Below, one piece after another: positions 3,184 to 28,131 of a stretch of 64,000 bases of DNA. Source of the DNA: Candidatus Babeliales bacterium. GTDB taxonomy: Bacteria; Babelota; Babeliae; Babelales; RVW-14. Made by a program: the position numbers and the translations under genes. The notes beneath the pieces are model-generated. The model had not been told where the DNA came from. It worked only from the letters and a program-made list of their open reading frames with translations, and did no database searches. Every line of letters begins with the position of its first letter. Within the stretch, counting starts at the first letter, position 1. The DNA lies in NCBI GenBank assembly GCA_019749895.1, contig JAIEPG010000005.1:6884-70883 (forward strand). The letters are read 5' to 3'.

Positions 3184-3199
3184 AATTCCTCCAAAAATA

Positions 3200-5806: not shown

Positions 5807-5815
5807 AATAACCTC

Positions 5816-6665: not shown

Positions 6666-6769
6666 AAAAAACCCTCACCATAAAAAATAATTTTAAAAAA
6701 ACACCAAAATCGGTGGGATATATTATTGCGCTTTAAAAAAAAATGACAATAAAAAAAAGCAAAAAATTT

Positions 6770-7921: not shown

Positions 7922-8970
7922 GCATCACCGTGCAAAGCTTTGAGATGCTGCAAATACGTTGCATACGAAACATATTTTTTTTCGGCCAGATACGCACGCG
8001 TTTGACGCGCTTTGTTTTGTACCACCACCAACTGCTCAGTTGTTTTAATCACAAACGCATCACAACCACTACCGCTGCCATAACTTACTAGTACAATTGT
8101 TTGATGTGGCTTAGCACTGTCGAGCACCGCGGTCAAACCCAGTAATGAATTGGCACTGTACGAATTTCCCAGCGTTTCAACCAACAAGCCACTCGCCAGT
8201 TGCTCACGAGAAAAACCAAGTTGACGTCCAACCATGAGCGGGAACTTGCCGTTGGGCTGATGAAAAATAACATGATCAACGTCACGTGGTTGCAAATTGT
8301 GCTGGGCAAGTAAGGCTTGTGTTGCTGCGACAACGTGCGCAAAATAGGCAGGCTGCGCGGTAAAGCGCCCCTCGTGCTCGGGGTAAGCGGCCAACGAGCG
8401 TCGCCAAAAATCCGGGGTATCGGAACTGTACGAAAGCGTGCGCTCAACCACCGCACAGGCATTTGCTACATCGTGTGAAACAATAAATGCAGCAGCGCCG
8501 GCACCGGCAGCATATTCCAAAATATCGCCCGACTTTGCTTGTGCGGTATCACTACCCACTGCCAACGCACATGAGGCCATTCCGCTTTTCACCACGCCCA
8601 AGGCTGCTTGCAGCGCAGCGGTACCACCTTTGCAGGCAAATTCAAAATCGGCAGCCAGGTAGTTGTTACCAATCCCTAAAACTTCTCCCAAAATGGTTGC
8701 TGAGGGCTTAACGGCATACGGATGGCTCTCGCTACCCACATAAACTGCTTGCAATGCCGGCGCTAAACACGCCGCACGCGTTAACGCATTTTTTGACGCA
8801 ACAACCGCCATAGTTAGCGCATCTTCGTCTGGCCCTGGTAACGATTTTTCACTCAGGCCAAGAGATTCTGCAATGCGCACAGGATCATCGCCACACGCAC
8901 GGGCCAACTCTTGAACAGCAATGCGATAGCGCGGAATGTAGGCACCATAGCCAATAATACCAGCAATCAT
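7918..8970 (-). CDS. HMG-CoA synthase, short (~350 aa) archaeal-like form
   Basis: GIIGYGAYIPRYRI start typical of the short archaeal-type enzymes. Catalytic Cys context DFEFACKGGTAAL. HQPNGKFP and SYGSGSG motifs. Confidence 0.85.
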   Translation of the reverse strand: MIAGIIGYGAYIPRYRIAVQELARACGDDPVRIAESLGLSEKSLPGPDEDALTMAVVASKNALTRAACLAPALQAVYVGSESHPYAVKPSATILGEVLGIGNNYLAADFEFACKGGTAALQAALGVVKSGMASCALAVGSDTAQAKSGDILEYAAGAGAAAFIVSHDVANACAVVERTLSYSSDTPDFWRRSLAAYPEHEGRFTAQPAYFAHVVAATQALLAQHNLQPRDVDHVIFHQPNGKFPLMVGRQLGFSREQLASGLLVETLGNSYSANSLLGLTAVLDSAKPHQTIVLVSYGSGSGCDAFVIKTTEQLVVVQNKARQTRAYLAEKKYVSYATYLQHLKALHGDA

Positions 8971-10235
8971 TATTGAAACCCTTCCGCCAAGAGCGCACGC
9001 GCACGCGCAACTGAAATATTTTTTTCAAGCACCATACAACTGGCCACAGCCTCAATTGCAGCACCGGTGGCGCCGGCAGTGATAGCAATATTTTGACTGT
9101 GCAGCCGCATATGGCCGTACTGAATGCCTTCGGTTACCAGCGCTCGCAGCGCAGCAAAATTTTGTGCCAAGCCCACCGCACCCACAACACCTGCCAACTC
9201 TTGCGCCGTTGCAACGCCAAGTATTTTAAGTGCTAAGCAGGCAGTTGGATGACTTTTGGTAATTCCGCCAACGGTTGCCACTGCCAGAGGCATTTCAACA
9301 TGCCCCACCAAATCACCCGCTTCATTTTTTTCATACCAACTGAGCGGCTGATAACTGCCCGTGCGAGCGGCATAACTATGCACACCCGCTTCGGCAGCAC
9401 GAGTATCGTTACCGGTTGCCAAGCACACAGCAACAACGCCGTTCATAATACCTTTGTTGTGCGTTGCCGCACGATAACTGTCGGCCGCTGCAAAGGCACT
9501 GGCTTGTACCATGGCATCGATGGTTGGCTGACCCAGCATTTCTTGCTTCCAGGTTGCAGCAACACGCACCACGCGCTCGGGAGAAAAATTGGAAACTATG
9601 CACAACCGCACCTGCCCGCCACACATTTTTTGGATCAGCGGGGCTATACGCTCGGCCATGGTATTTACAATGTTGGCGCCCATGGCATTGCCCACATTTA
9701 CACTCAATTTGATTGAGAGGCACAATTCGTTATTGATCAAGAGCTCGTGACCCACCACATCTACCGCCCCTCCGCCATGCTCAAGCAAGACTGGGTCGGC
9801 TTGATTGGCGTAGCTTAAAAGTTCGTTTTTGTGCGCATTAAGAGCCTGCAAGGCTTTGTAACAGTCGGGCACGCTTGCCAACAAAATTTGGCCGGTCATA
9901 AGCGGAAAACCGCCATGCGCAGTAAAGCCTCCGGCAACACGAGCAAGCTTAGCGCCGTACGAAGCAGCCGCAACCACACTAGGCTCTTCGGTAACCATGG
10001 GAATAAGATAATCATTGCCATTAACCATAAAATTGGTCGCTATGCTCAAGGGAAATGACATGACCGAAACAACATTTTCACTCATTTTTTGGGCATGAGA
10101 GATGGCCAAAGAAGCGCCAGACTGCAAGGCCTGAACCTCTTGATTAGTAAGATCGGCAAAGGCTTGAACATGCTGCAAGCGCTCTTCAACTGATTTTTTA
10201 TAAAAAGCGGGAAATCTACTGCACCTGTTTTTCAT
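8970..10235 (-). CDS. mvaA: HMG-CoA reductase, class II
   Basis: ~420 aa soluble form. SENVVSVMSFPLSIATNF, MVTEEPSVVAAAS (class II signature), VGNAMGANIVNTMAE, ATVGGITKSHP. ATG at 10235 preferred over TTG at 10250. Confidence 0.9.
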   Translation of the reverse strand: MKNRCSRFPAFYKKSVEERLQHVQAFADLTNQEVQALQSGASLAISHAQKMSENVVSVMSFPLSIATNFMVNGNDYLIPMVTEEPSVVAAASYGAKLARVAGGFTAHGGFPLMTGQILLASVPDCYKALQALNAHKNELLSYANQADPVLLEHGGGAVDVVGHELLINNELCLSIKLSVNVGNAMGANIVNTMAERIAPLIQKMCGGQVRLCIVSNFSPERVVRVAATWKQEMLGQPTIDAMVQASAFAAADSYRAATHNKGIMNGVVAVCLATGNDTRAAEAGVHSYAARTGSYQPLSWYEKNEAGDLVGHVEMPLAVATVGGITKSHPTACLALKILGVATAQELAGVVGAVGLAQNFAALRALVTEGIQYGHMRLHSQNIAITAGATGAAIEAVASCMVLEKNISVARARALLAEGFQ

Positions 10236-10459
10236 GCAACCACCACGCAAGCAAGCTTTGTTAGCTTGTTTTATGCCATTTAAGAAAAAGAATATCGTGA
10301 AAGGTAATGGATATCTTGCGCTCTGTCAATTAGTTACTACTACCGATACAAACCAAGCAAACCACACGCTTTCAATTTCTTTTATCAAAATCATTGATAA
10401 TAATATTTACTATTTGATATTTTAATAAGTAGTAGTATTAAAATAAAGAGGAGAGGCCC

Positions 10460-12016
10460 ATGAAGTCATTATGCTCATTAGTCAAATCGGTTACAACGCT
10501 TTTTGCTGTTGTAGCTCTATTTGTTGGTTCTGCCTTGTCGGCAGCATCAACAAATCCGCTTAATATTCCTACCAACTTTGCAAGCCAAGCCAATATCGAC
10601 GACCTTGCCACTGGCTATTTTAAGCAAATCAGCGGCATGTCGACCGTCGAAAACAAAATTCAAGCGCTCTCAACATTAATCGACCGCTCAGATCGCGCAA
10701 CGTTTAACGCCTCCACCCAAACGGCTTTTGGCAAACTCGTTGAAGACGCTTACAAAATGGCCACTTCAGAAAGTAGCCAACTATTGCTCTTGCCAGTACT
10801 TTCACAAGCACAGTCAAGCACGTTATTGGCACCAGTACAACAGAATTATGTCGCACAAAATATGATTTTTGGCGTTCTAAAAAACTTAATTACTACCGCT
10901 GCTCAAAAATCGACCTATCAAGATCGCTTAAATAGCCTTTCTGCCATTACCAACCCAAACAATTTTGTAACCAGACGCGGCTTGCGCATAACCCTTACGC
11001 AAGGCGTTCGCGATCTTTACTACCGAACATTGGTACAGTTGTACGAACAACGCACCAACCAAAGCAACCAAGCACAAGCACAACTGCGCGATATCATGCG
11101 CACAGCACTCAAAGGCAGCGTTCCTTTGCTCGACAACCGCCGCCGCCAATACGTAAGCCAACAGCTGTTACCAAAATTAGACGCTTTTAAAGAATTTAAA
11201 AAAGAAAGCACAACCACCAGCACAAGCGGAGCAACGGGCACTGGAGCAACAACTGGCACAACCACCGGTGGAACAACCGCAGGTACTGACAGCTCTGGCG
11301 TTCAAACAGGAGCTGGAAGCGCTACTGGCACTGGCACCTCGGGCACCGGCACAACTGCTGGCAGCCAACTGAGTGCTGGCAATGTTGCAGGCACGGGTAG
11401 TACCGACAGCCAATCAGGAACAGGTAGTGTTTCAGTTCCTGGTATTCCAGATGCTGGCACCGGCACAACCACAGGCACAACTGCAAGCTCAGGTAGCAAA
11501 ACAACGCCAGGTACCGGCAGCCTTGACGCTCAATTAGCAACAGCAACAGGAACAGGTACCTCGACAGCCGATACCAGTAACACGGTATTTAATGACGACA
11601 GAATTAAACGCTTATTAGACAGTATTGGTAAACAACCGCTCATCGAAAATCGCTTACGCTTTATGTCCAAGCTAACTGCAAAATCAGGCTCCGGAACCTT
11701 TAAGCCAGAAACACAACAAGCATACGCCGATCTCTTGGTAGAAGTAGCAAAACAAAGCAGAGAAGTTGCTACGCTTGCTCAAGACCTGCTCAAAGCAGCA
11801 AGCACCTCACCGTTACTCTCAACCAAACAACAAAAGTACGTAACATCAACCATGATACCACAGCAAACTCAACCACTTGCAACAGTAGAAACAACAATAC
11901 CTGGAGCAAAAAAACAAAAGGTCGCCAAAGTAAGAAAAGAACGTCGCGTTCAAAAGAGCGGTAAGCGCCAAGGAATAAAAGCAGGCAAAACCAAAAGAGC
12001 TGCTCAAAATCAGTAA
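10460..12016 (+). CDS. secreted protein with three copies of a novel ~80-aa module, a Thr/Gly-rich linker and a basic tail
   Basis: GAGGAG RBS, leader MKSLCSLVKSVTTLFAVVALFVGSALSAAS. Modules end in LLAPVQQNYVAQNMI, LLDNRRRQYVSQQLLP and LLSTKQQKYVTSTMIP. The T/G linker is roughly nt 11207-11585. C-terminal tail is KKQKVAKVRKERRVQKSGKRQGIKAGKTKR. Confidence 0.7.
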   Translation: MKSLCSLVKSVTTLFAVVALFVGSALSAASTNPLNIPTNFASQANIDDLATGYFKQISGMSTVENKIQALSTLIDRSDRATFNASTQTAFGKLVEDAYKMATSESSQLLLLPVLSQAQSSTLLAPVQQNYVAQNMIFGVLKNLITTAAQKSTYQDRLNSLSAITNPNNFVTRRGLRITLTQGVRDLYYRTLVQLYEQRTNQSNQAQAQLRDIMRTALKGSVPLLDNRRRQYVSQQLLPKLDAFKEFKKESTTTSTSGATGTGATTGTTTGGTTAGTDSSGVQTGAGSATGTGTSGTGTTAGSQLSAGNVAGTGSTDSQSGTGSVSVPGIPDAGTGTTTGTTASSGSKTTPGTGSLDAQLATATGTGTSTADTSNTVFNDDRIKRLLDSIGKQPLIENRLRFMSKLTAKSGSGTFKPETQQAYADLLVEVAKQSREVATLAQDLLKAASTSPLLSTKQQKYVTSTMIPQQTQPLATVETTIPGAKKQKVAKVRKERRVQKSGKRQGIKAGKTKRAAQNQ

Positions 12017-12139: not shown

Positions 12140-12167
12140 TTGACAAATTGGCAATATTTGTTACTAT
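12140..12167 (+). promoter_or_regulatory. candidate sigma70-type promoter for the first array-A gene
   Basis: TTGACA (12140-12145), 16-nt spacer, TACTAT (12162-12167), ~70 nt upstream of ATG 12240. Confidence 0.35.
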
Positions 12168-12239: not shown

Positions 12240-13325
12240 ATGAAAAAATTTATGAACGCATTTATTATTGCCCTCGCACTTACCGCCAACGCACTGCCAG
12301 CGGCAGAACCAACGCTTGACGAGCTGCATGCTGCAATAGAACATAACAATATTCCCGTTCTTGATACTTTGCTTCAACAAAATCCAAACATTTTTGAGCT
12401 AGACATTGAAAAAGGAACACCGCTGCACTACGCAGTTAAAAAAAATAATCAAGAAGCTGTGCAAGCACTGCTCAACTACGCCACCCAAAAAAATCTGCTC
12501 TTCCATATTCTTGATAGTAGGGACTGCGATAACCTGACTCCTCTTGAATTTGCAGACCGCCTTGGTCGTACGGGCTGCGCAACCCTCATGCGTAAGTACC
12601 AAAACATGATCGCCTTTGACTATGACGAAGCTGGCAACGCACACCCACTGCCAACAACACCTGTACGCCAACCAGCTTCAAGAGATAATCAGCTCATCGT
12701 GTCCTACAGCACTCTAAACAAACCAATTAAATTGCGCACGGCCATAATCACCAAAAACGTCACCCAAGCTGAGGATCTTTTGACAGAGAACAAAGACCTC
12801 CTTTTAGACCAAGATAGCAATAAAGATACGCTTCTTCATGGCGCTGTCCTTGTGGATAGTTTTGAGTGTGCACAAGTAATACTTGCTCATGCACAACAGC
12901 AAAATGTCTTGAATGCAATCCTCAATGCTCAAAATGCACAGGGACAAACAGCTCTGCATATGGCTGTTATGAAAAAAACAGTGATGTTGATTGCAGACGA
13001 CGAAACGGTCAAGCCAACGAGCCACATGATCGAAGATTCGCGCTTTGCCCAAGAAATTATTGATTATGCCCAAACAAGCGGCACGCTCTCTTTGATTATC
13101 AACATGAGCGATAACAAAAACGAAACGCCACTCCACCTGGCGGCAAAGGCAAAAAATGACGTGTGCATTCGGCTTCTTCTTAGCCAAGGAGCTGACACCC
13201 AAGCCCGTAACTCAATGGGACTGAGTCCCGTTGATCTTCTGCGCAAACGTGAAGATGCCGATCTGATAACCCTTTTCAAAACACAACAGAAAAAACAAAA
13301 ACAGGAAAAGTGCGTAATTTGCTAA
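12240..13325 (+). CDS. secreted ankyrin-repeat protein A1, polybasic + CaaX (CVIC) C-terminus
   Basis: Leader MKKFMNAFIIALALTANALPAA. ANK units GTPLHYAVKKNNQEAVQALL and ETPLHLAAKAKNDVCIRLLLSQGAD. Ends KKQKQEKCVIC-stop. Confidence 0.85.
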   Translation: MKKFMNAFIIALALTANALPAAEPTLDELHAAIEHNNIPVLDTLLQQNPNIFELDIEKGTPLHYAVKKNNQEAVQALLNYATQKNLLFHILDSRDCDNLTPLEFADRLGRTGCATLMRKYQNMIAFDYDEAGNAHPLPTTPVRQPASRDNQLIVSYSTLNKPIKLRTAIITKNVTQAEDLLTENKDLLLDQDSNKDTLLHGAVLVDSFECAQVILAHAQQQNVLNAILNAQNAQGQTALHMAVMKKTVMLIADDETVKPTSHMIEDSRFAQEIIDYAQTSGTLSLIINMSDNKNETPLHLAAKAKNDVCIRLLLSQGADTQARNSMGLSPVDLLRKREDADLITLFKTQQKKQKQEKCVIC

Positions 13326-13361
13326 AGAAAAATAAAAATTAAGAACCAAAAAGGTTATATC

Positions 13362-14276
13362 ATGAAAAAATTTATGAGCCCACTAATTATCGCCCTTGCT
13401 CTTAACGCCAACGCACTGCCTGCAGCATCTAGTTACGGAGAAATCCCTGAAGTAGAATTAAGCAGAGCAATAAAATTAAACGATTTAGCTTCAATAACCT
13501 TCTGGATAAAAACAGCAAACTTACGTACACAAGATAGTGATGGCAATACACCACTTCACCTTGCCATTATTCATAACAACAAACAAGCAACAGCTGGTAT
13601 TATTTTTTCAGCACAAGAACAAAATATTCTTCCTCAAATCTTAAACATAGAGAATAACAAGGGAACTACACCGCTACAACTCGCACAACGTTCTAGCAAT
13701 AAAGAGCACCTAAAATTTATAGCCTCTATTGCCCCCGAAGAAGCACAATTTGTAAAACCCAAACAAAAAACTTTTCTTTTATTCAGGACAATAGGAACGA
13801 ACAACATTGATGAACTGAAACAATTACTGAGACAAGACAACCTCAAGCCAGCACTTCATTTTGCAACCAACAACAACAAACCTGAGTGCTTACATACAAT
13901 CTTGAGCTATGCACAGGAAAAAAACATGCTCTTAGAAACGCTCAGAACAACCAACGAACGCGGCCAAACAGCACTACATGTAGCAGCAATAAATGGCTTT
14001 ACGTTATGTATGCAAGAAATAGTTATGTTAGTACATAGTGATCCTGCAATACTGAATCTACGTGATAATAAAAACCAAACACCTCTTCATTTAGCTGCAC
14101 AACATGATCACGAAGAATGTGTTCGCATACTACTCGCCGCAGGCGCTGATACTGAATTTTCAGACACTCATGGCAATACAGCAGCTCAATGTGCTCGACA
14201 AAATAGACATGAAGACATTGCTATGATCATTGAGAAAAACGAAAAAAACAAAAAAGAAAAATGCGTCATTTGTTAA
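13362..14276 (+). CDS. secreted ankyrin-repeat protein A2, polybasic + CaaX (CVIC)
   Basis: Leader MKKFMSPLIIALALNANALPAA. GNTPLHLAIIHNN, QTALHVAAINGF, QTPLHLAAQHDHEECVRILLAAGAD. Ends KNKKEKCVIC-stop. Confidence 0.85.
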   Translation: MKKFMSPLIIALALNANALPAASSYGEIPEVELSRAIKLNDLASITFWIKTANLRTQDSDGNTPLHLAIIHNNKQATAGIIFSAQEQNILPQILNIENNKGTTPLQLAQRSSNKEHLKFIASIAPEEAQFVKPKQKTFLLFRTIGTNNIDELKQLLRQDNLKPALHFATNNNKPECLHTILSYAQEKNMLLETLRTTNERGQTALHVAAINGFTLCMQEIVMLVHSDPAILNLRDNKNQTPLHLAAQHDHEECVRILLAAGADTEFSDTHGNTAAQCARQNRHEDIAMIIEKNEKNKKEKCVIC

Positions 14277-14305
14277 TGAACGTTTATTTAAAAATAGGTT
14301 ATATC

Positions 14306-14848
14306 ATGAAAAAATTTATGAGCCCACTAGTTATCGCCCTTACACTTAGCACTAACACACTGCCTGCAGCATCAAGCTCTGCGGCAAGCGTACAGCCAGT
14401 AGCTGAGAGATATAGTAAACGTCTCTTTCAAGCTGTCGCAAACAACCAAATGTTCGAAGTATCTAAACTCATCAAAAAGGGCGCCAATCTTCTCGCTCAA
14501 AACGAAGAAGGTTTTACTGTTCTTTATCTAGCAGTGCTTCATAACAACATCGAATGCTTAAACACCATTATTCTTTATGCTCGAGAAAAGAATATCCTTA
14601 ACGAAGTACTTAATGCCCAAACAAGAGAATGGCGCCAAACTCCTCTTCATGCCGCCGCAGCAATGGATCGTAAATCGTGTGTACGTGCGCTCCTTGAAGC
14701 TGGTGCTAACACAACGCTTAAAAATGGAATGGGAAGAACAGCAGCAGAACACGGTCGGCACAACGATTATACAGAACTTGCTATGATTATTGAAAATTAT
14801 GGAAAAGAACCGAAGCAAGAAAAAAACAAAAAATGTATCATTAGTTAA
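14306..14848 (+). CDS. secreted ankyrin-repeat protein A3, polybasic + CaaX (CIIS)
   Basis: Leader MKKFMSPLVIALTLSTNTLPAA. FTVLYLAVLHNNIECL, QTPLHAAAAMDRKSCVRALLEAGAN. Ends KQEKNKKCIIS-stop. Confidence 0.85.
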   Translation: MKKFMSPLVIALTLSTNTLPAASSSAASVQPVAERYSKRLFQAVANNQMFEVSKLIKKGANLLAQNEEGFTVLYLAVLHNNIECLNTIILYAREKNILNEVLNAQTREWRQTPLHAAAAMDRKSCVRALLEAGANTTLKNGMGRTAAEHGRHNDYTELAMIIENYGKEPKQEKNKKCIIS

Positions 14849-14876
14849 AGAGATCATTTTACTCGCTAATAAAAAA

Positions 14877-14905
14877 GGGGCAGGAAATTCCTGCTCCTTT
14901 TTCTT
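14877..14905 (+). terminator. rho-independent terminator after A3
   Basis: ggggcagg-aaattc-cctgctcc stem-loop (8 bp, one G-U) followed by tttttc. Confidence 0.65.
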
Positions 14906-14929
14906 TGTCTCAATTTTTGGCAAGCTGGG
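14903..14929 (+). promoter_or_regulatory. copy 1 of the array-A intergenic promoter-like cassette
   Basis: ctttgtctcaatttttggcaagctggg aligns with the consensus TTTGCATAAATTTTTGGCATGMTACA seen at 15469, 16086, 19043 and 21273. Confidence 0.3.
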
Positions 14930-14977
14930 AAAAAACATAACAGATTTTTTCATGTCAAAAATTTTAGGAAAAAGAAT

Positions 14978-15442
14978 ATGAACAAAAAAATTGTCACGCT
15001 ACTTGCCCTTGCCCTTTCGCTCACCACACACGCCATGCCGGCAGCAACGCCAAACTACCGCCACCTCCTACAAGCAGTTAGTAGCAAAGATGACAATGGC
15101 GACAAAGTACGAGAACTTCTGACCAAAGGTGGCAATGCCAATGGTACAAGCCCGTTGGGCATGCCACTTCTTTTTTTGGCTGCTCGTGGAGGTAAAACAG
15201 AAGTTATGGCAGCTCTCATTGAAAACGGCGCAGTCGTAGACGCTCCAGAGAAAACAACCGGCATAACGCCGTTGCATGTTGCCACAAGGTACGGCCATGT
15301 TGATGCAGTCAAACTACTTCTTGAAAAAAAAGCTAACGTCCACCTTAAAAACAACGAAGGACAAACCGCGCTGGATATCGCTACACAACACCAACTCTCA
15401 GAAATTGTTGAGCTCTTAGAAGCCGCAGACCCATTAGAATAA
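14978..15442 (+). CDS. secreted ankyrin-repeat protein A4
   Basis: Leader MNKKIVTLLALALSLTTHAMPAA. ITPLHVATRYGHVDAVKLLLEKKAN, QTALDIATQH. Confidence 0.85.
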   Translation: MNKKIVTLLALALSLTTHAMPAATPNYRHLLQAVSSKDDNGDKVRELLTKGGNANGTSPLGMPLLFLAARGGKTEVMAALIENGAVVDAPEKTTGITPLHVATRYGHVDAVKLLLEKKANVHLKNNEGQTALDIATQHQLSEIVELLEAADPLE

Positions 15443-15468
15443 CCTTTTCATTTTCAGCATTCTCTTTT

Positions 15469-15495
15469 CTTATGCAACCGTTTTTTGGCATACTG
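15469..15495 (+). promoter_or_regulatory. copy 2 of the promoter-like cassette
   Basis: cttatgcaaccgttttttggcatactg. Confidence 0.3.
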
Positions 15496-15552
15496 AAAAA
15501 AATTTTCTGATGTCAAAAAATAGTAGATAGTGATTTAATGGAGATAGTTATC

Positions 15553-16020
15553 ATGAATAAAAAAATTACTCGCTCATTATGCGCAGCTCTTGCACTTGCC
15601 AGCAACACCCCCGCTACTCATTTAGCCGCCAGCGCTTATGAACTGCGCGAAGTAGCAAGATTTGGACAATGTTTTAGATTGCAGCAACTCATTAGCGTTC
15701 AGATCCCGGTAAATGAAGCCGACATAACAGGCTTAACGGCCTTGCACTGGGCTGCCCAAAACGGCCACTGGCGTTGCGTAGAACTACTCATTCGCGTTGC
15801 TCACGTTGATGCTCTCGATTGGACTCAAGAAACGCCGTTGCACAAAGCCGCGTGGAGCGGCAGCTACAAATGCACACAACTACTACTTAATGCCGGCGCT
15901 AATCCAGCAGCGGTAAATGAATTCGGCCAAACACCACTCGACATTGCACGCGAAAAAGATTTTCAAGCAATTATTGATATCTTACTTGACGCTGCACAAG
16001 AAACTACCAACGAGTATTAA
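15553..16020 (+). CDS. secreted ankyrin-repeat protein A5
   Basis: Leader MNKKITRSLCAALALASNTPA. LTALHWAAQNGHWRCVELLI, ETPLHKAAWSGSYKCTQLLLNAGAN. Confidence 0.85.
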   Translation: MNKKITRSLCAALALASNTPATHLAASAYELREVARFGQCFRLQQLISVQIPVNEADITGLTALHWAAQNGHWRCVELLIRVAHVDALDWTQETPLHKAAWSGSYKCTQLLLNAGANPAAVNEFGQTPLDIAREKDFQAIIDILLDAAQETTNEY

Positions 16021-16085
16021 TTTTTTTGCTTTCTCTTTTTTTTGATCCCATCAATACACGCAATAGTTACTATGTGCTCTTTTTT

Positions 16086-16150
16086 GTTTGCATAATTTTT
16101 TGGCATGATACAATGTGTCACTAAATATCACTAAAAAATTGTTTTTTTAG
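16086..16150 (+). promoter_or_regulatory. copy 3 of the promoter-like cassette plus conserved leader box
   Basis: TTTGCA-16nt-TGATACAAT (extended -10 like) followed by cactaaaaaattgttttt, a box repeated at 19524 and 21306. Confidence 0.45.
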
Positions 16151-16183
16151 TTCTTAACAACCCAAACACCAGGAGAGTATGTC

Positions 16184-16915
16184 ATGATCAAAAAAATTAC
16201 CGGCTCATTATTTATTGCACTCACCATCGTTAACACTGCAATGCCTGCAGCATCATCATTTTCAGATGATTGGAAAGAACAAAAAAATAACGCTCTTTTG
16301 GCCGCCATTAAAAAGGGCGTTGCTGTCACTAGCATAAGAAAACTTCTTGCTGATGGCGCTAATCCTGGTGTCAAAGATGATCTGGGCCAAACACCCCTTC
16401 ATCACGCAGCATCAATGGGCCGCCGCGCATACGTGGAAGAACTTCTTACACACGACATTAGTACTGAAACTAAAGACCCTGCTGGCTGGACCGCCCTCCA
16501 TTTTGCAGCAAACAACGGAAAACTTGTCTGCTTAGAAGTACTTATTGCAAATGGCGCAAAAATTGATACCCAAGCTGAAAATGGTGAAACACCCCTGCAC
16601 CAAGCTGCGTGGATGGGACACCCATCATGCCTCAATGCACTTCTTCAAGCAGGCGCAACTATTGAGGCTAAAGACCGCCTTGGTAAAACCGCATTGCACA
16701 AAGCTGCCTTCAACAACCACTTCACCTGCGTACAAGCTCTTATTGTAGCTGGCGCTAGCGTTAACGCTCTGGACAATAACGACAACACACCGCTTCATTT
16801 TGCCATACTGCGAGGCAACCATGAGTGCGCACAAGCGCTTCTTAGAGCCAACGCCGACACTGATATCATCAACAAAAAGGGCAAAACACCTGCTATGATG
16901 ACACCACAAGAATAA
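16184..16915 (+). CDS. secreted ankyrin-repeat protein A6 (five clear ANK units)
   Basis: Leader MIKKITGSLFIALTIVNTAMPAA. QTPLHHAASMG, WTALHFAANNGKLVCLEVLI, ETPLHQAAWMGHPSCLNALL, KTALHKAAFNNHFTCVQALI, NTPLHFAILRGNHECAQALL. Confidence 0.9.
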   Translation: MIKKITGSLFIALTIVNTAMPAASSFSDDWKEQKNNALLAAIKKGVAVTSIRKLLADGANPGVKDDLGQTPLHHAASMGRRAYVEELLTHDISTETKDPAGWTALHFAANNGKLVCLEVLIANGAKIDTQAENGETPLHQAAWMGHPSCLNALLQAGATIEAKDRLGKTALHKAAFNNHFTCVQALIVAGASVNALDNNDNTPLHFAILRGNHECAQALLRANADTDIINKKGKTPAMMTPQE

Positions 16916-16960
16916 GTTATTTTCTAATAAATCTAGATTAGTAAACAACAGGAGTTACTC

Positions 16961-18319
16961 ATGATTAAAAAGTTCTTTAGTTTCTTTCTCTTAAGCCTTG
17001 CCCTCACCAGCACTGCCTTGCCCACAGCAAGCGAATATGCACACTGGGAAACACCAGAAGAAGCAGAAAAAAAAGTAGCTTACTACATGGCACAACACGA
17101 AGCCAGAAAAGCTTATGAACCAAAGATTGATCGATTTAAAATTGCTGGCCTTGTTCTTGAACACCATCCAAAAGAAACCCCAGAAGAAGCTGCCCAACGC
17201 GTAAAACAAAACCCACACCCAATCAGCGGGGCATCACACAGCGCATACAACCAAGCTCTGTACTACCAAACACTGAGCAGTAAAACTGCACCATCATCAG
17301 ATTATGATTATGATGCAGAAGTTGAACTCGTTGGTTTTATGCTTGAACATACTCAAATAAGCCAGGACGATGCTGCCGAAGAAAAAAGAATAGAACAACT
17401 GAGTCGCAAACTGCAAATGGCAATTGGCAAAGCATCGTGCCAAGAACTACAAGAGCTTATTGATGCGGGCGCTGATGTTAATTTTAGCAGTGGCTATCTG
17501 TTGCCACCGCTTCATCAAGCAGCAGGAGAAGGCCACGTAGATCATGTTAGGTTCCTCCTCAGAAATGGCGCTGACCCTAACAAATTTTTTTTCGAACGCG
17601 GTACACATTTTAGCCCACTCATGCTTGCCTTAGCCCAAAAACGTGCCCACTGCGCCCAACTCCTTATTCAAGCCGGCGCTCATGTTTTTGAAATAGTTGC
17701 GGGCGAAAACACAGCACTTCACATCACGCTTGCCATGACAAACATTCTCGACATTTTGAGTGTAAAACAAAACCAAAAAGAAACCTGGGAATGCTTGCAC
17801 ACCATTCTTGTTTCTATAACCCCTGAAGAACGTACAAAGCTCATTAACGCGCCCAACGCTCTGGGCCAAACCCCGCTACATTTGGCAGCAAAAAGACTTA
17901 ATCTTGAATGCGCGCAACTCTTAATGGACAACGGTGCTAACATTAACGCAGTCGACGGTGATGGCAACAACGCACTTCACTACGCAATTCAAGAGCGAAA
18001 AGAATTAGACAAAAATAATCAGAATCTTATGATGGCTGGCCTGTCACTTGAAGCAAAAGTTGATAACATGATCGGCTATCTTCTGTGGCCAGATTTTTCG
18101 ATAAACAATATTTTTAATCCAAAACCACGCAATCTCTACAAAAAAATCAACATTAATGCACAAAATAAAGCCGGCGAAACAGCTTTGCTACTGGCAAGCA
18201 AAGTTGGCTACTGGAAACCAACACAAACACTCATTAAAGCTGGCGCAAACAAAAGCATCAAAGACCATGCAGGCAACGCATTCCAACCAGTCAACCATCC
18301 AATGTGCATAATTTCATAA
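16961..18319 (+). CDS. secreted ankyrin-repeat protein A7, CaaX (CIIS)
   Basis: Leader MIKKFFSFFLLSLALTSTALPTA. Duplicated ETPEEA segment. PPLHQAAGEGHVDHVRFLLRNGAD, QTPLHLAAKRLNLECAQLLMDNGAN. Ends NHPMCIIS-stop. Confidence 0.85.
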   Translation: MIKKFFSFFLLSLALTSTALPTASEYAHWETPEEAEKKVAYYMAQHEARKAYEPKIDRFKIAGLVLEHHPKETPEEAAQRVKQNPHPISGASHSAYNQALYYQTLSSKTAPSSDYDYDAEVELVGFMLEHTQISQDDAAEEKRIEQLSRKLQMAIGKASCQELQELIDAGADVNFSSGYLLPPLHQAAGEGHVDHVRFLLRNGADPNKFFFERGTHFSPLMLALAQKRAHCAQLLIQAGAHVFEIVAGENTALHITLAMTNILDILSVKQNQKETWECLHTILVSITPEERTKLINAPNALGQTPLHLAAKRLNLECAQLLMDNGANINAVDGDGNNALHYAIQERKELDKNNQNLMMAGLSLEAKVDNMIGYLLWPDFSINNIFNPKPRNLYKKININAQNKAGETALLLASKVGYWKPTQTLIKAGANKSIKDHAGNAFQPVNHPMCIIS

Positions 18320-18356
18320 ATAAGAATTTAAACGATTAAACAACAGAAAGTTAATC

Positions 18357-19034
18357 ATGATTAAAAAATTTATGTTTTTGCTTTTTATTTCCCTCTCTCT
18401 GGCAAACACCGCGCTGCCTGCAGCAACAACATCACACAACGCACAACTGTCACTAAAACAAGACTCAATACTATCGCGCTTTCTTGATGCAGCAAAATAT
18501 AATGAAAGCAAAAAAATTAAAATCTATATTCAATTTCTAAAAGCAGAAAACATTAGCATTGACAGGCTGGGCAAGTTTGGCGAAAGCGCTCTGCACATAG
18601 CCGCAGAAAACGGTCACACTGAAATGGTAAAAATACTTTTAGATGCTGGCGCCAGCCCAGAAGCACTAACCAGAGAGGGCTTAACACCGCTCCACTACGC
18701 TGCCAATTGCGCAATTATGCAATTGTTGCTTGATCGCCACGTCAACATTGAAGCAGTAGACAAGCACGGCAAAACGCCCCTACATTGCGCCGCACTGCGC
18801 GGCCGTGTTGAGTGCTTACAGTTATTGCTCAATAATAATGCCAACCCCAATGTTTTAACCACATTACAACAAACGCCACTTCACTTTGCCGCCGCTCGCA
18901 AAGACGGCGCTGAATGTGTGACAAAACTTCTTGCAGCAGGAGCCGACAAAGATCTTCAAGATTTTTCAGGTAAAACCACTTTTGAAATTGCAGCCTGGCA
19001 CCAGCACAAGCTTGTTATGAGGGCTTTGCGCTAA
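18357..19034 (+). CDS. secreted ankyrin-repeat protein A8
   Basis: Leader MIKKFMFLLFISLSLANTALPAA. ESALHIAAENGHTEMVKILLDAGAS, KTPLHCAALRGRVECLQLLL, QTPLHFAAARKDGAECVTKLLAAGAD. Confidence 0.9.
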   Translation: MIKKFMFLLFISLSLANTALPAATTSHNAQLSLKQDSILSRFLDAAKYNESKKIKIYIQFLKAENISIDRLGKFGESALHIAAENGHTEMVKILLDAGASPEALTREGLTPLHYAANCAIMQLLLDRHVNIEAVDKHGKTPLHCAALRGRVECLQLLLNNNANPNVLTTLQQTPLHFAAARKDGAECVTKLLAAGADKDLQDFSGKTTFEIAAWHQHKLVMRALR

Positions 19035-19042
19035 GTATTTTT

Positions 19043-19070
19043 CTGTGCATAAATTTTTGGTGTGGTACAC
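19043..19070 (+). promoter_or_regulatory. copy 4 of the promoter-like cassette
   Basis: ctgtgcataaatttttggtgtggtacac. Confidence 0.35.
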
Positions 19071-19121
19071 TCCTCGCAAGAGAGTATTTTGAAAAAAAAT
19101 CTTAGATACCCGGAGAGTACC

Positions 19122-19529
19122 ATGATCCAAAAAATTATACGTACATTTTTTTTCACACTGGCACTGGCAAACACGGCATTGCCCACCGGTATACAACCTC
19201 TTGATGCTGCCGACCAAGAGGGCCTTACCGCACTTCACCACGCAGCAATCAACAATCATCAAAACGTTATTGAAGAGTTTGTTGCTGCAAGCGTTTCGCG
19301 TGACGCACAAGACAACCAAGGCTGGACAGCGCTGCACTGGGCCGCCCAGTACGGTCGTTCTGCTTTTGTAGCACAACTTCTTGCAGCGGGTGCCAATCCG
19401 TGCATTAAAAACAAGCAGGGCTGTGGTGCTGCAACCATTGCAGGCATCTACCGATACCGCAGACTCATGCGCCGCTTGCTTGAGGCAGAAGAAATGTGGG
19501 CATTGGCAGAAGAGCATATGTCTCACTAA
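19122..19529 (+). CDS. short ankyrin-repeat protein A9
   Basis: Leader-like MIQKIIRTFFFTLALANTALP. LTALHHAAINNHQNVIEEFV, WTALHWAAQYGRSAFVAQLLAAGAN. Confidence 0.8.
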   Translation: MIQKIIRTFFFTLALANTALPTGIQPLDAADQEGLTALHHAAINNHQNVIEEFVAASVSRDAQDNQGWTALHWAAQYGRSAFVAQLLAAGANPCIKNKQGCGAATIAGIYRYRRLMRRLLEAEEMWALAEEHMSH

Positions 19530-19573
19530 AAATTGTTTTTAGAAAACTATTACATAAGCACCGAAAGTTAATC

Positions 19574-20314
19574 ATGATAAAAAAATTAAGCTCATTTTTT
19601 TTTGCACTCGTTCTAACAAGTAATGCAATGCCAGCAGCATGTTCATCGTCAACACAACAACCATCTGCTGACGACTCAAGTAGTAGCCCCAGAATAGATA
19701 ACCGTACGCTTAACCTCGAATTTGTTAAAGCTTTCCATTCAAAAGCAAGCTGCGAAGAAATACTAGCACTTATTGCTGCCGGCGCCGATGTTAATTGTTA
19801 CTACAACGGAAGTACTTGCTTGCATTATGCAGCAAACAACGGCATGGCCGACCACCTCAGCTTGCTCTTAAGAAATAGGGCAAATCCTGAGCTACGAAGC
19901 GCTACTCTCTTACGAACCCCTCTTCATGAAGCAGTTTCCAGCCTTCACCTTGAATGCGTAAAAAGACTTGTTCAACACGGCGCAGACCTGAATGCACGTG
20001 AACACAGCGGCGGCACACCTCTCCACTTTGCCGTAATGTCCAGCTCTGTGGAACGGGAAAATCCTAAAATAGAACAACTGAAAATCAACATTATAAATAT
20101 GCTTATTTACAAACGGTTTAGCCAGTCAGTGGGAAGCAGCACTGATAGCATTACAGAAAAAAATAATATTAATCTGGATGCGCAAAATATGTTTGGACAC
20201 ACAGCGCTACATGTTGCTTACTTAAGTGGTTATAAAAATATTGCACAAGTTCTTCTGCAAGCCGGGGCCAATCCTAGAATCCCAGACATATTTGGCCAAA
20301 CAGTTGCCAGGTAA
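19574..20314 (+). CDS. secreted ankyrin-repeat protein A10
   Basis: Leader MIKKLSSFFFALVLTSNAMPAA. STCLHYAANNGMADHLSLLL, RTPLHEAVSSLHLECVKRLVQHGAD, HTALHVAYLSGYKNIAQVLLQAGAN. Confidence 0.85.
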   Translation: MIKKLSSFFFALVLTSNAMPAACSSSTQQPSADDSSSSPRIDNRTLNLEFVKAFHSKASCEEILALIAAGADVNCYYNGSTCLHYAANNGMADHLSLLLRNRANPELRSATLLRTPLHEAVSSLHLECVKRLVQHGADLNAREHSGGTPLHFAVMSSSVERENPKIEQLKINIINMLIYKRFSQSVGSSTDSITEKNNINLDAQNMFGHTALHVAYLSGYKNIAQVLLQAGANPRIPDIFGQTVAR

Positions 20315-20361
20315 GATCAAACATAAAAAAGTAATCATAATTTTTAACCCAAAACGTGATC

Positions 20362-21282
20362 ATGATTAAAAAAGTTATATGCTCATTTTTTATAACGCTT
20401 GCACTCGCAAGCACCGCAATGCCTGCTGCACTGCCAGAAAATGACCGACAACTTCTTGTTGCTGCCAAAGATGGCAACATCGAACGCTTACAAGAACTTA
20501 TTAGAGCTGGCGCCAACGTTAACGCAACTAATCAACAGGGCACTACCCCACTTCATGAGGCGACGCCACTTGGCAATACAACATGTGTAGAACTACTGCT
20601 TGCCGCAGGTGCTAACCCAAATGCACAAGATGCAAAAGGAAAAACACCGCTTGAATATGCCGCGCTAATTGGCCATGTCACCTGCGTACAACTGATGGCT
20701 TGGGCACCAACTACCACAATGAGCACTGCCTTAGCGGCCCTGCAATATGCTGCCATGAAAGGTTTTAGCACCTGCTTGCGCGTCCTCATTGCCGCAACGT
20801 CTAGAACTGGCAGGGCAAATAAACAAGGCAACTTCCCACTTCACTACGCAGCAGCGCGTGGCCATTCAACATGCGTACACGATTTGCTTCATCCAACGCA
20901 AGGAGTCCTTTCAAACGTTCACCTTCTCAGCCTTGCAAGTATGGCGCAACTAGTCATTGATCGAGAAAGTGTTAATGCACAAAATAAGTTTGGCAACACA
21001 CCGCTGCACTTGGCAGCCAAAAATGGGCATGTTGCCTGCGTGCGCGAACTTCTTGCTGCGAGTGCCAATCCGTGCATTCGTAATCATGTTGAAAAAAAAC
21101 CTTGCGACCTTGCCACTCACTACGGCGTGATTTACATTTTGGAAAAAGCTGAGCAAATGTGGGCAGAAACGCATGAAGAAGTTTACGACGATCATGATGA
21201 TCTTCAAAGCGTTGAAAAAATGATGTTATATTATTTGGTGTTAAAATCTGCTGAGAATACCTGCTCCTTTTTCTTTGCGTAA
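20362..21282 (+). CDS. secreted ankyrin-repeat protein A11
   Basis: Leader MIKKVICSFFITLALASTAMPAA. TTPLHEATPLGNTTCVELLLAAGAN, KTPLEYAALIGHVTCVQLM, NTPLHLAAKNGHVACVRELLAASAN. Confidence 0.85.
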   Translation: MIKKVICSFFITLALASTAMPAALPENDRQLLVAAKDGNIERLQELIRAGANVNATNQQGTTPLHEATPLGNTTCVELLLAAGANPNAQDAKGKTPLEYAALIGHVTCVQLMAWAPTTTMSTALAALQYAAMKGFSTCLRVLIAATSRTGRANKQGNFPLHYAAARGHSTCVHDLLHPTQGVLSNVHLLSLASMAQLVIDRESVNAQNKFGNTPLHLAAKNGHVACVRELLAASANPCIRNHVEKKPCDLATHYGVIYILEKAEQMWAETHEEVYDDHDDLQSVEKMMLYYLVLKSAENTCSFFFA

Positions 21283-21329
21283 ATTTTTGGCATGCTACAC
21301 GATGTCACTAAAAAATTGTTTTTAGAAAA
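21273..21329 (+). promoter_or_regulatory. copy 5 of the promoter-like cassette plus leader box
   Basis: ctttgcgtaaatttttggcatgctacacgatgtcactaaaaaattgtttttagaaaa. The preceding cctgctcctttttc is the right half of the terminator seen at 14891. Confidence 0.4.
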
Positions 21330-21363
21330 TCATCACCATTACAACATCACACGGAGTTAATTA

Positions 21364-21807
21364 ATGATCAAAAAATTGAGTGCTCTTTTTATTACACTTG
21401 CACTGGCAACCACTGCCCAGCCAGCAGGAGAGGCTCCTGAAGAAAATCCCCAAGCACCTTTACTTTTTGCGGCAGTAGAAACAAGTAATTTACCTTGGCT
21501 CAAGCAACTCATTGCCACGGGAGCCCCCACTAAAGGACTAGGTTTATTACCATTTGCCGCTTCACGCCGTCACACTGCAGTTATTTCTTACTTGCTCGAG
21601 GAAAAAAAAGTTGATGTTAACGAACAAGATGAATTAGGACGAACAGCAGCACACTTGGCCGCGCGCATAGGCGCTACCGAGATTGTTAAAACGCTCACCC
21701 AACACGACGCAGACATCACCATAGCCGACCAGTTTGGCCGCGTTCCACGAGAATATGATGCCGGGCAAGATGCACAACTTACCAGACTTTTAACGCCGGA
21801 AGATTAA
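21364..21807 (+). CDS. short ankyrin-repeat protein A12
   Basis: Leader MIKKLSALFITLALATTAQPA. RTAAHLAARIGATEIVKTLTQHDAD. Confidence 0.75.
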   Translation: MIKKLSALFITLALATTAQPAGEAPEENPQAPLLFAAVETSNLPWLKQLIATGAPTKGLGLLPFAASRRHTAVISYLLEEKKVDVNEQDELGRTAAHLAARIGATEIVKTLTQHDADITIADQFGRVPREYDAGQDAQLTRLLTPED

Positions 21808-21840: not shown

Positions 21841-22512
21841 ATGAAGAAAATTTTTTTTTGCGCGTTAACCGCTAGTTGGCTCTTTGCAAGTGTTCATGCT
21901 TCGGTTGATGAAAAAATAGCCACGCTGCAGACACTCAACTTCAACGAAAAAATTGCCACGCTCACCCAACTCATTCAAACAACCGGCCAGCGAACACTGA
22001 GCAAAGAAGACCAAGAAACATGCGCAAGTTTCTTGATGGGCCTTTTTCATGAAGTTGCGCTGCACGGCGAGCCAGAGCGCATCGCTTTTAAAAATCTGCT
22101 TCACAGCCTGCTAGCCAGCACCCTGCTCACGCACGAGCAACGCGAATACATCACCAAACTCATGCTGCCTTTTGTTGATCCTGCAAGCCAAGCGGCAACA
22201 CCAACTATCCAACGCTCTCCTGCAACCGAACCAGAAAACGCTCACGCCAACAATCGTGTGTTTCATGATACGCAACAGATCACCGTCCCAATTATTACCA
22301 AAGAGTGGGTACCCGGAGAGAGTGGCAAGCTTGAGCAAAAAACTGAGATTAGTTTTAAAACGGTAAAACCACACACTACTTCCAACACTCAACAAAAACA
22401 TGTTACCGAAAAAGAAAGACAACTAACAAGATCTGTTACAGAAGAAACCACCAGCAAAGGCAGCGGGCGCAGACCGCGCTGTAGAAAAGCAGGAATTTAT
22501 CGAAGCGCATAA
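21841..22512 (+). CDS. secreted protein carrying one copy of the module found in the 10460-12016 product
   Basis: GGAG RBS. Leader MKKIFFCALTASWLFASVHAS. EKIATLTQLIQTTGQRTLSKEDQETCASFL...LLTHEQREYITKLMLP matches ENKIQALSTLIDRSDRATFNASTQTAFGKL...LLAPVQQNYVAQNMI. Basic C-terminus. Confidence 0.65.
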   Translation: MKKIFFCALTASWLFASVHASVDEKIATLQTLNFNEKIATLTQLIQTTGQRTLSKEDQETCASFLMGLFHEVALHGEPERIAFKNLLHSLLASTLLTHEQREYITKLMLPFVDPASQAATPTIQRSPATEPENAHANNRVFHDTQQITVPIITKEWVPGESGKLEQKTEISFKTVKPHTTSNTQQKHVTEKERQLTRSVTEETTSKGSGRRPRCRKAGIYRSA

Positions 22513-26315: not shown

Positions 26316-26346
26316 TAATTTAAGCAGTGAAAAGAAGGAGAATAGT

Positions 26347-26892
26347 ATGAAGAAAATAAGCTTATTTATGTTCACCACACTGATTACTTTTTTATCGGCA
26401 CATGGTGTTGTCACACGAGCACACGCAACACCTGGTAGCCTCTACAAAGAATATTGCGCGTTGCTGCATCACCATGCAGCACAAGGCAACGCTAATTGTC
26501 TAAAAATTATTCTTCAAAACCCACAAGCACAGCAAGCACTTGAATCGCGTTCGCAACATCTCAAACTCACCCCACTTCTTCAAGCACTCTTTTGGCCACA
26601 CCATACAAAAAAACACTGTGCTTGCGTTAAAACACTGTTGGCAGCTGGTGCCAGCACAACAGCAACAACACAAAATCGTAAAAGTACCGCCATACACCTT
26701 GCCAGCAGAGCCGGTTGTCTCACCTGCATTGAAGCATTATGCAAATACGACTCAAAAACTTGGCAAAAAGATCGCGATGGCAACACACCCGCTGGCGTTG
26801 CTCAAAAATACGCTGAATTTTACACAGACAAAGAAAACCAAGAAAAATTTAATCTGTGTTTAACCTTTTTAAATTCATTAAAAATTTGTTAG
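26347..26892 (+). CDS. secreted divergent two-ankyrin protein B2
   Basis: AAGGAG RBS. Leader MKKISLFMFTTLITFLSAHG. KKHCACVKTLLAAGAS...TAIHLASRAGCLTCIEALC...DGNTPAGVA. The longer ORF from 26143 was rejected. Confidence 0.75.
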   Translation: MKKISLFMFTTLITFLSAHGVVTRAHATPGSLYKEYCALLHHHAAQGNANCLKIILQNPQAQQALESRSQHLKLTPLLQALFWPHHTKKHCACVKTLLAAGASTTATTQNRKSTAIHLASRAGCLTCIEALCKYDSKTWQKDRDGNTPAGVAQKYAEFYTDKENQEKFNLCLTFLNSLKIC

Positions 26893-26904
26893 ACTCCAAC
26901 GACT

Positions 26905-27303: not shown

Positions 27304-27333
27304 AACAACACCCCACACCACGATTGGACAACT

Positions 27334-28107: not shown

Positions 28108-28131
28108 TTCATAACGCTCAAAAGGGAGAGT

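Follow-up and report, generated by a model that had tools for sequence, protein, structure and literature searches.

A tandem array of twelve ankyrin genes, named array A, was analysed within a stretch of DNA from an uncultured 'Candidatus Babeliales bacterium' (64,000 nucleotides (nt) of contig JAIEPG010000005.1; this whole 64-kb stretch is referred to as the window). Array A occupies positions 12240-21807. Listing and translation of the open reading frames (ORFs) placed all twelve genes on the + strand, with spacers of 29-163 nt between neighbours. Each of the encoded proteins matched Ank families of Pfam well over the curated cut-offs (Ank_2 E-values from 6.7e-12 to 3.2e-40) and contains 1-5 scored repeats, in agreement with an earlier note on this DNA, which had described twelve + strand ankyrin genes with short spacers. 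Shine-Dalgarno-like GGAG or AGG sequences are located 8-12 nt 5' of the ATG codons. The earlier note also drew attention to a common leader peptide ending in A-[LM]-P-A-A, and suggested that this end may be a dedicated sorting or processing signal. The origin of the array and the role of the leader are considered below.

The first three genes, A01 (12240..13325; 361 aa; leader MKKFMNAFIIALALTANALPAA; Ank_2 E-value 1.2e-24), A02 (13362..14276; 304 aa; leader MKKFMSPLIIALALNANALPAA) and A03 (14306..14848; 180 aa; leader MKKFMSPLVIALTLSTNTLPAA), encode proteins with a polybasic stretch followed by a CaaX box as the last four residues (CVIC, CVIC and CIIS, encoded at 13314-13325, 14265-14276 and 14837-14848, respectively). 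The only other CaaX box of the array (CIIS; 18308-18319) terminates A07 (16961..18319; 452 aa; leader MIKKFFSFFLLSLALTSTALPTA), a protein with an N-terminal region of approximately 150 aa without ankyrin repeats; the remaining eight members lack such an end. A04 (14978..15442; 154 aa; leader MNKKIVTLLALALSLTTHAMPAA) corresponds to NCBI entry MBY0353596.1. A05 (15553..16020; 155 aa) has a deviant leader, MNKKITRSLCAALALASNTPATHLAASA, with an ordinary A-S-A farther downstream. A06 (16184..16915; 243 aa; leader MIKKITGSLFIALTIVNTAMPAA) has five scored repeats, and an identical protein was found on Logan contigs of SRR15085118-129, all of them short. The array is completed by A08 (18357..19034; 225 aa; leader MIKKFMFLLFISLSLANTALPAA), A09 (19122..19529; 135 aa; leader MIQKIIRTFFFTLALANTALPTG), A10 (19574..20314; 246 aa; leader MIKKLSSFFFALVLTSNAMPAA, followed by CSS), A11 (20362..21282; 306 aa; leader MIKKVICSFFITLALASTAMPAA) and A12 (21364..21807; 147 aa; leader MIKKLSALFITLALATTAQPAG).

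Leader peptides of the ankyrin arrays

The leaders of array A are composed of M-[IKN]-KK, approximately 11 uncharged residues and a Pro-centred end, [STAN]-x-A-[LM]-P-A-A. The strict form A-[LM]-P-A-A is present in 8 of the 12 members; the others carry ALPTA (A07), ALPTG (A09), AQPAG (A12) or the deviant NTPATHLAASA (A05). The Pro is the sole motif residue that is invariant in the twelve window genes, followed in conservation by L(-8), L(-6), A(-2), A(+1) and A(+2). The shared leader end of the earlier note was thus recovered as a Pro-centred motif throughout the family, but not as an invariant A-[LM]-P-A-A.

A positively charged n-region and a short uncharged h-region are located at the very N-terminus, as is typical of Sec-type signal peptides. 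Other types of signal were considered and rejected: (i) a Tat signal, since the n-regions read M-x-KK without RR, (ii) a lipoprotein signal (lipobox L-[AS]-[GA]-C), since a Cys follows the motif in A10 alone (PAAC) and the other 11 leaders lack it, and (iii) the phytoplasma SVM signal, since Pfam scans revealed no SVM_signal match.

At the DNA level, the leader forms the largest direct-repeat family of the region, which begins slightly upstream of the ATG (by a few bases) and stops at the GCAGCA encoding P-A-A. Six matches to a degenerate DNA pattern of the leader were found in the window, compared to no matches in 100 shuffles. Nevertheless, the leaders are not near-identical in DNA, as had been claimed. 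Over 19 right-anchored codons the mean nucleotide identity was 0.56 (range 0.26-0.88), close similarity (0.75-0.88) was confined to A01-A03, and the consensus quoted in support of the claim fits A08 and A09. With a mean identity of 56%, near-identical DNA was rejected as the cause of the shared leader.

Two further ankyrin arrays are present in the window. Array B comprises 16 head-to-tail genes on the - strand (42417-53783), encoding secreted ankyrin-type proteins with the leader M[LF]KKIM..LVL.VG.SVHGA. Array C comprises five + strand genes (25449-29570), whose secreted products contain weak or single ankyrin repeats and have leaders ending in SAHGA, IYTAA, LPAHSA, MPLNA and LPLNA. The leaders of other secreted window proteins end in SAHG|A, SALSA|A, LNA|V and similar sequences. 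Since the leaders of arrays B and C and of these other proteins end differently, the PAA-type end is not a rule of the organism or of its ankyrin proteins, but a feature of one paralogue family. The identity of the first 20 residues was 0.43 within array A, compared to 0.23 between arrays A and B.

Related genomes, selection and gene conversion

The proteins of the window are labelled 'Candidatus Babeliales bacterium' at NCBI, and the HMG-CoA reductase encoded 2 kb 5' of array A shares 95% identity with its counterpart in 'Candidatus Babeliales bacterium' JAIERW010000016.1, a metagenome-assembled genome (MAG) referred to below as the sister MAG. A homologous array (locus L008) was found at the same place in this MAG, adjoining the same 518-aa secreted protein. 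Its genes, designated R01, R02, etc. after their orthologues in array A, are reordered: the orthologue of A01 follows that of A03, and the orthologue of A06 follows that of A09. No counterpart of A04 was found in the retrieved part of the L008 array. The orthologous ankyrin proteins are 46-80% identical (e.g. 67% for A01/R01, 77% for A02/R02, 73% for A03/R03 and 68% for A08/R08), compared to 95% for the reductase, which indicates that the array evolves fast. Among 5.8 billion proteins, the only orthologue of A07 was P0002 (76% identical, with the C-terminal end CLIS); beyond A07 itself and P0002, the full-length search recovered generic ankyrin proteins.

The motif, in the form [LMTQ]-P-A-[AC], is kept in 8 of the 10 syntenic sister leaders (e.g. 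AMPACSS in R10). The Pro was lost in R09 (...LALANTAETLTLD, i.e. ANTAETLT) and R05 (NTTATHLAASA), both of which have intact ORFs, and the variants QPAG, KPAA, LPTG, TPAA and MPMT are tolerated within the family. Genes found by adjacency alone, i.e. without ascertainment by the motif, also carry it (TTKAIPAA and TTSVMPAA at locus L022). Absence of the motif from homologous arrays of relatives, which the earlier note had named as part of what would refute a dedicated signal, was therefore not observed.

The distribution of the leader was examined with a profile built from the first 40 residues of the 11 motif-bearing window members (A05 was omitted). Among 1.84 billion representative proteins, this leader-only profile matched 27 at E <= 1e-3, in all cases at residues 1 to ~30. 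Nineteen of these originate from outside the window and all 19 are ankyrin proteins, as confirmed by Pfam for 10 (P0138 included) and by ankyrin consensus repeats in the sequence for 9. Searching the word-indexed database of 5.8 billion proteins with the same 40-aa profile yielded no matches at E <= 10. The non-window matches were assigned to (i) other loci of the window's own genome (P0128 and P0137, the latter adjoining P0146), (ii) other contigs of the sister MAG (P0136, P0139 and P0143, the last of which (MBX9831028.1) is the orthologue of A11 and carries TAQPAA) and (iii) the complete genome CP064957.1 (P0130 and P0138). The remaining matches lie on unassigned short metagenome contigs; those that were traced otherwise belong to these three Babeliales genomes. 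CP064957.1 is more distant (83% identity for superoxide dismutase (SOD) and 68% for mevalonate kinase) and its members of the leader family are single genes, which indicates that the leader is older than the array.

One of the sister-genome proteins, P0136 (L022 10001-11581; JAIERW010000001.1), combines seven ankyrin repeats with a RING finger behind the leader …LALTANAQPAA, an E3-ligase architecture of eukaryote-like type that follows a Sec leader.

Nine orthologue pairs were pooled to compare nonsynonymous (dN) and synonymous (dS) divergence. The leader showed a dN of 0.163 and a dS of 0.62, and the mature part a dN of 0.225 and a dS of 0.635, giving dN/dS ratios of 0.26 and 0.35, respectively. 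The leader is therefore under purifying selection, only slightly stronger than that acting on the cargo. The motif Pro is encoded by all four codons (CCT in 5 genes, CCA in 3, CCC in 3 and CCG in 1) and the dS of the leader is close to that of the mature part; thus, the motif is conserved by selection on the peptide and not by DNA identity, which bears out this element of the earlier interpretation. Among the paralogues of array A, identity was 0.50 in the leader vs 0.32 in the mature part. The MxKKI subgroup of array B gave corresponding values of 0.53 and 0.27, with the different leader end SVHGA. Since array B shows the same contrast, the combination of a conserved leader and a diverged cargo is a property of these expanding effector families rather than of A[LM]PAA.

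The A01-A03 leaders are 79-92% identical across both genomes, whereas the mature parts group by orthology (0.75-0.86 vs ~0.5). In the quartet A02/A03/R02/R03, five informative sites within nt 1-66 support grouping by genome and none supports orthology: at all five, the derived states are common to A02 and A03, and the alternative states to R02 and R03. The mature parts of the quartet group by orthology (0.86 and 0.83 vs ~0.53), and the first orthology-supporting sites are located at nt 69 and 72, just past the motif. This pattern indicates gene conversion between A02 and A03, limited to the 66-nt leader (13362-13427 in A02 and 14306-14371 in A03, compared with 8009-8074 and 7065-7130 of L008), although the number of sites is small. 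Gene conversion across the 5' ends, for which the earlier note had recommended tests, was thus detected, but in one pair only.

These data bear directly on the possibility that the similarity of the leaders arose mainly at the DNA level, i.e. that recent duplication and recurrent conversion homogenized the 5' ends (perhaps including the ribosome-binding region) with no particular selection on the peptide. The A02/A03 quartet, the 75-88% DNA identity of the A01-A03 leaders (with mature parts at ~50%), codon sharing above expectation (see below) and the start of the repeat family a few bases 5' of the ATG would all fit such a scenario. Beyond A01-A03, however, the leaders are only 26-70% identical in DNA, synonymous sites are largely randomized (as illustrated by the four Pro codons), and the 30 nt upstream are just 43-73% identical, even within A01-A03. 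Moreover, the leaders of A08 and R08, which are orthologous, resemble one another more than they resemble any paralogue, and the motif survives across genomes at a dS of ~0.6 and beyond. Despite residual ancestry, the leader DNA is far from homogenized, and we consider a mainly DNA-level origin unlikely.

Cleavage register, CaaX boxes and the role of the leader

The position of the Pro relative to a possible cleavage site was assessed using 307 verified Gram-negative signal peptides, from which Pro frequencies and a position matrix were derived. Within these sites, Pro occurs at P4 (16.6%), P2' (10.8%) and P2 (0.33%), and is absent (0%) from P3, P1 and P1'. A log-odds scorer built from the matrix recovered the known sites of all four E. 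coli controls (OmpA, PhoA, MalE and Bla). The best-scoring site was [AST]-x-A|[LM]-P for A01, A02, A07, A12, R01 and R02, with modest scores; for the other members it was placed inside the h-region or 3' of the motif, and never directly after P-A-A. Cleavage at P-A-A| is excluded by the matrix, since it would place the Pro at -3. Two registers may therefore apply: either the motif forms the first four mature residues, or a weak site after P-A-A-x is used, with the Pro at approximately P4. In both registers the Pro would occupy a position of normal Pro enrichment (P2' or ~P4).

The combination [LM]-P at the boundary of the h-region and the cleavage region was also observed in unrelated leaders of the window (WLPAHSA, SMPLNA and KLPLNA). 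A metagenome scan with the degenerate leader DNA pattern returned at least 103 in-frame matches. Those listed include no ankyrin proteins and no Babeliales locus, and are dominated by two abundant human-gut genes; they derive from dozens of unrelated signal peptides, with an ordinary A-x-A located after A[LM]PAA (e.g. ALPAAFA|A, AMPAAA| and ALPAASA|L). As a string, A[LM]PAA is thus commonplace in unrelated bacterial signal peptides.

PAA-like leader ends were also noted in two proteins with neither ankyrin repeats nor any other Pfam match, encoded at L021 1666-3276 (-; MKKLATALLVCLGANSMVLPAAKK) and L008 20173-21269 (+; …ALALATTAQPGN, which is similar to the leader of A12). This may reflect re-use of the leader on other cargo or, alternatively, a cleavage region typical of the lineage.

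The proteins of the window submitted to Pfam scans (those of the array, both flanks and most other long ORFs) include mevalonate-pathway enzymes, acetyl-CoA synthetase, MazG, an M23 peptidase, T2SS-E, SecA and others. No gene for a peptidase or for sorting was found linked to array A among them, nor any S24 or S26 peptidase.

The suggestion that A-[LM]-P-A-A is a dedicated signal can be formulated as a two-step model. Signal peptidase I would cut before the motif, and a specific factor would then recognize the exposed [LM]-P-A-A N-terminus, which would mark one class of ankyrin effectors; this factor could be the type II secretion system, a dedicated peptidase or a step of host translocation. 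Alternatively, the exposed end might protect the effector, as X-Pro N-termini resist aminopeptidases. The invariance of the Pro in the twelve window genes irrespective of codon, the best-scoring [AST]-x-A site before [LM]-P in six proteins, the end of conservation right after P-A-A, the ankyrin nature of all 27 profile matches and the persistence of the motif in CP064957.1 are compatible with such a role. On the other hand, the members of arrays B and C, which are equally likely effectors (one with a CaaX box), lack the motif; R05 and R09 have lost it and several variants are tolerated; the dN/dS of the leader is just slightly under that of the mature part; and no linked peptidase or sorting gene was found among the window proteins scanned. 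In unrelated signal peptides this string occurs commonly, with an ordinary A-x-A after it, and similar leader ends are present on two proteins that lack ankyrin repeats. We therefore regard a dedicated second-step signal as improbable. Nothing in the array requires one: the contrast of leader and cargo recurs in array B, the constraint is ordinary, the Pro can be lost and its position is normal, the string is generic, and in one pair the leader alone has undergone gene conversion. The idea is neither needed nor supported by the data, and the cleavage register leaves it a small chance. In its most specific form, [LM]-P-A-A, exposed by the [AST]-x-A cut, would be a second address tag for one Babeliales class of ankyrin effectors, akin to a bacterial version of the PEXEL logic known from Plasmodium, and might direct outer-membrane passage, entry into the host cytosol or stability there. 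This version appears highly unlikely.

Evidence on the final destination of the proteins comes from their C-termini. The CaaX boxes are conserved between the window proteins and their orthologues, with changes in the a-a-X residues (CVIC/CVIC for A01/R01, CVIC/CAIC for A02/R02, CIIS/CIIC for A03/R03 and CIIS/CLIS for A07/P0002). Conserved CaaX boxes, like the RING finger of P0136, make sense only inside a eukaryotic cell and therefore indirectly support a host-cytosol destination; their conservation on four members would imply delivery to that compartment. No link of CaaX boxes or prenylation to Dependentiae was found in the literature searched.

Three other window proteins with Sec leaders also end in a CaaX box: the array B protein B03 (CSLQ; 43598-43612, -), the product of 29567-30220 (CLIS; 30206-30220, +) and that of 2731-3393 (CLLF; 2731-2745, -), for which the sister MAG has CSLL.

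It is extremely improbable that the leaders remain uncleaved as signal anchors, or act as lipoprotein signals, and thereby keep the ankyrin domains on the bacterial envelope. Although a Cys directly follows the motif in A10 and its orthologue (PAACSS and PACSS, loosely lipobox-like) and cleavage-site scores are modest, 11 of the 12 members lack a Cys near the leader end, h-regions of ~11 residues are too short for a stable membrane anchor, and conserved CaaX boxes and a RING finger are sensible only in the eukaryotic cytosol.

Taken together, array A is probably a lineage-specific tandem expansion of secreted ankyrin effector genes in an uncultured Babeliales intracellular parasite of protists, i.e. 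an effector island of the usual kind. According to this explanation, the twelve genes would descend from one ancestral gene and would have retained its Sec-type signal peptide. The leader would be held by purifying selection, with the addition of gene conversion in at least one pair (A02/A03), while the ankyrin parts would diverge quickly and the array would gain, lose and reorder members. The invariant Pro would act as the helix-breaking residue at the boundary of the h-region and the cleavage region. SecA/SecYEG would carry the proteins into the periplasm, where signal peptidase I would cleave the leader, and a type II secretion system or outer-membrane vesicles would release them. In the host cytosol the ankyrin domains would bind host proteins, and the host would farnesylate A01, A02, A03 and A07 at their CaaX boxes, anchoring them to host membranes. 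The window also contains a gene for a T2SS-E ATPase (38135-39385) and the 3' portion of secA, which fits a Sec/type II route.

What was observed directly comprises the structure of the genes, their ankyrin domains, the leader family with its distribution, the pattern of selection, array turnover and conversion in one pair. Several points weigh against the expansion of secreted effectors as proposed here. Export, cleavage, secretion route and prenylation are all inferred from sequence. Identical leader residues share a codon in 213 of 478 comparisons, compared to 140 expected from codon usage, which indicates that part of the similarity of the leaders reflects residual DNA ancestry or conversion and not selection. 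No cleavage register is fully canonical: the scores of array A are modest, the best site varies among members, and Met at P1' and Pro at P3 both occur in 0 of the 307 training sites. If the leaders were cut at [AST]-x-A|[LM]-P, the conserved mature N-terminus [LM]-P-A-A would not be explained by the requirements of signal peptidase. Finally, the leader is tied to ankyrin cargo in 27 of 27 profile matches, which is expected of a signal for a cargo class, but of common descent too.

Genomic surroundings and comparison with known systems

Array A is bracketed by genes for two secreted proteins without a Pfam family, one of 518 aa upstream (10460..12016, +) and one of 223 aa downstream (21841..22512, +), which have in common a helical domain of weak similarity (BLASTP E = 2e-5). 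The 518-aa protein adjoins the array in the sister MAG too, and a 598-aa homologue is encoded by CP064957.1. The best sigma-70-like promoter match, TTGACA-16-TACTAT with TG, is a consensus match located 5' of A01 (12140..12167, +), and a terminator scan identified a hairpin with a 14-bp stem and a T run after A03 (14872..14902, +). Apart from this one strong hairpin, the promoter and terminator scan of the region revealed no more sites than shuffled sequences. A repeated intergenic element (…CTGCTCCTTTTTCTTTG.…AATTTTTGGCATG.TACA…) occurs at 14873-14930, 16056-16113, 19038-19070 and 21243-21300, i.e. 3' of A03, A08 and A11 and 5' of A06. Its first copy contains the terminator-like hairpin (14872-14902), and the second includes a promoter-like TTTGCA-16-TACAAT (16087-16114); the element may divide array A into transcription units. 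Rfam and tRNA scans of the window revealed just two tRNAs, both distant from the array.

Elsewhere in the window, an archaeal-style mevalonate cluster (1049-10250, -) encodes a GHMP kinase, an OB-fold (DUF35-like) protein, a thiolase, an HMG-CoA synthase-like protein and HMG-CoA reductase. In the genome collection, the reductase was matched best, if Babeliales are set aside, by Bathyarchaeota (~51% identity), which suggests an old transfer from archaea. GC skew is negative over the whole 64 kb whatever the gene orientation (cumulative value -4.3), indicating that the + strand probably serves as the lagging-strand template over its full length.

The Dependentiae, the phylum to which Babeliales belong, are common parasites of protists with a wide distribution, and nearly all of them are uncultured. 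Their large sets of ankyrin proteins with signal peptides are thought to be their main tools of host manipulation. Array A offers a clean example of how such an arsenal evolves, with tandem birth, loss and reordering of genes, a fast-changing cargo and a leader held by selection and occasional conversion. The compact leader profile, which was specific for the family among the 1.84 billion proteins searched, could be used to catalogue this class of effectors. The CaaX boxes on proteins with Sec leaders would imply that proteins exported by the Sec/type II route reach the host cytosol and make use of host farnesylation. A dedicated sorting motif would matter much more if true, but the evidence does not support it.

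A conserved signal peptide combined with a variable mature part is also a feature of phytoplasma SVM proteins, conotoxin superfamilies and mycoplasma variable lipoproteins. As in the SVM and conotoxin families, the leader is the best-conserved segment of the proteins of arrays A and B, and the mature part diversifies. Unlike in those families, to which there is no sequence relationship, the mature part of the array A proteins keeps a common repeat fold.

A special cleavage site that is processed poorly by the housekeeping enzyme and served by a dedicated peptidase is exemplified by Bacillus subtilis SipW and its substrates TasA and TapA, as set out in the cited excerpt (PMC10269814). Sortases, exosortases and PEXEL/plasmepsin V are further systems with dedicated machinery. 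The gene of SipW shares an operon with those of its substrates, in contrast to array A, for which the Pfam-scanned window proteins include no S24/S26 peptidase or other candidate.

The CaaX-bearing members resemble AnkB of Legionella pneumophila, an ankyrin protein with a C-terminal CaaX box; in A01-A03 the box is preceded by the polybasic stretch. CaaX effectors of the AnkB type are lipidated by host farnesyltransferase in the host cytosol, according to the portion of the report cited here (PMC2916131). Unlike the array A proteins, AnkB has an F-box, is injected by the Dot/Icm type IV system and has no Sec signal peptide. Pfam scans of the array A proteins gave no F-box match. Because an F-box is lacking and Sec leaders take the place of injection by a type IV system, array A was not assigned to the AnkB family and is considered analogous only.

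The closest parallels are the ankyrin islands of Babela massiliensis and Chromulinavorax destructans, members of the same order, in which many ankyrin genes are clustered or in tandem and mostly have predicted Sec signal peptides. For Babela massiliensis, the cited passages report 126 ankyrin proteins, 79 of them with signal peptides, ankyrin-rich islands with many tandem duplications, and a type II system as the sole secretion system (PMC4378268). For Chromulinavorax, the corresponding passages give 98 ankyrin proteins, 78% with a signal peptide, and vesicles as a possible second route (PMC6561590). In these excerpts, release into the host cell is presumed to proceed via Sec and the type II system or vesicles (PMC4378268, PMC6561590), and the TM6 core genome includes a type II system (PMC4776705). 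Array A differs in its family-specific leader, the A[LM]PAA end and the CaaX boxes, which were not found described in the excerpts of the two accounts, and its genome represents a different uncultured lineage, with a GC content of 42-45% in the window, compared to 27% in Babela. Like the islands of Dependentiae, it lies in a Babeliales genome among clustered ankyrin genes (12 in array A, 16 in array B and 5 in array C within 64 kb). Islands of secreted ankyrin proteins, with export by Sec and a type II system, are already known for Dependentiae, and array A is another such island.

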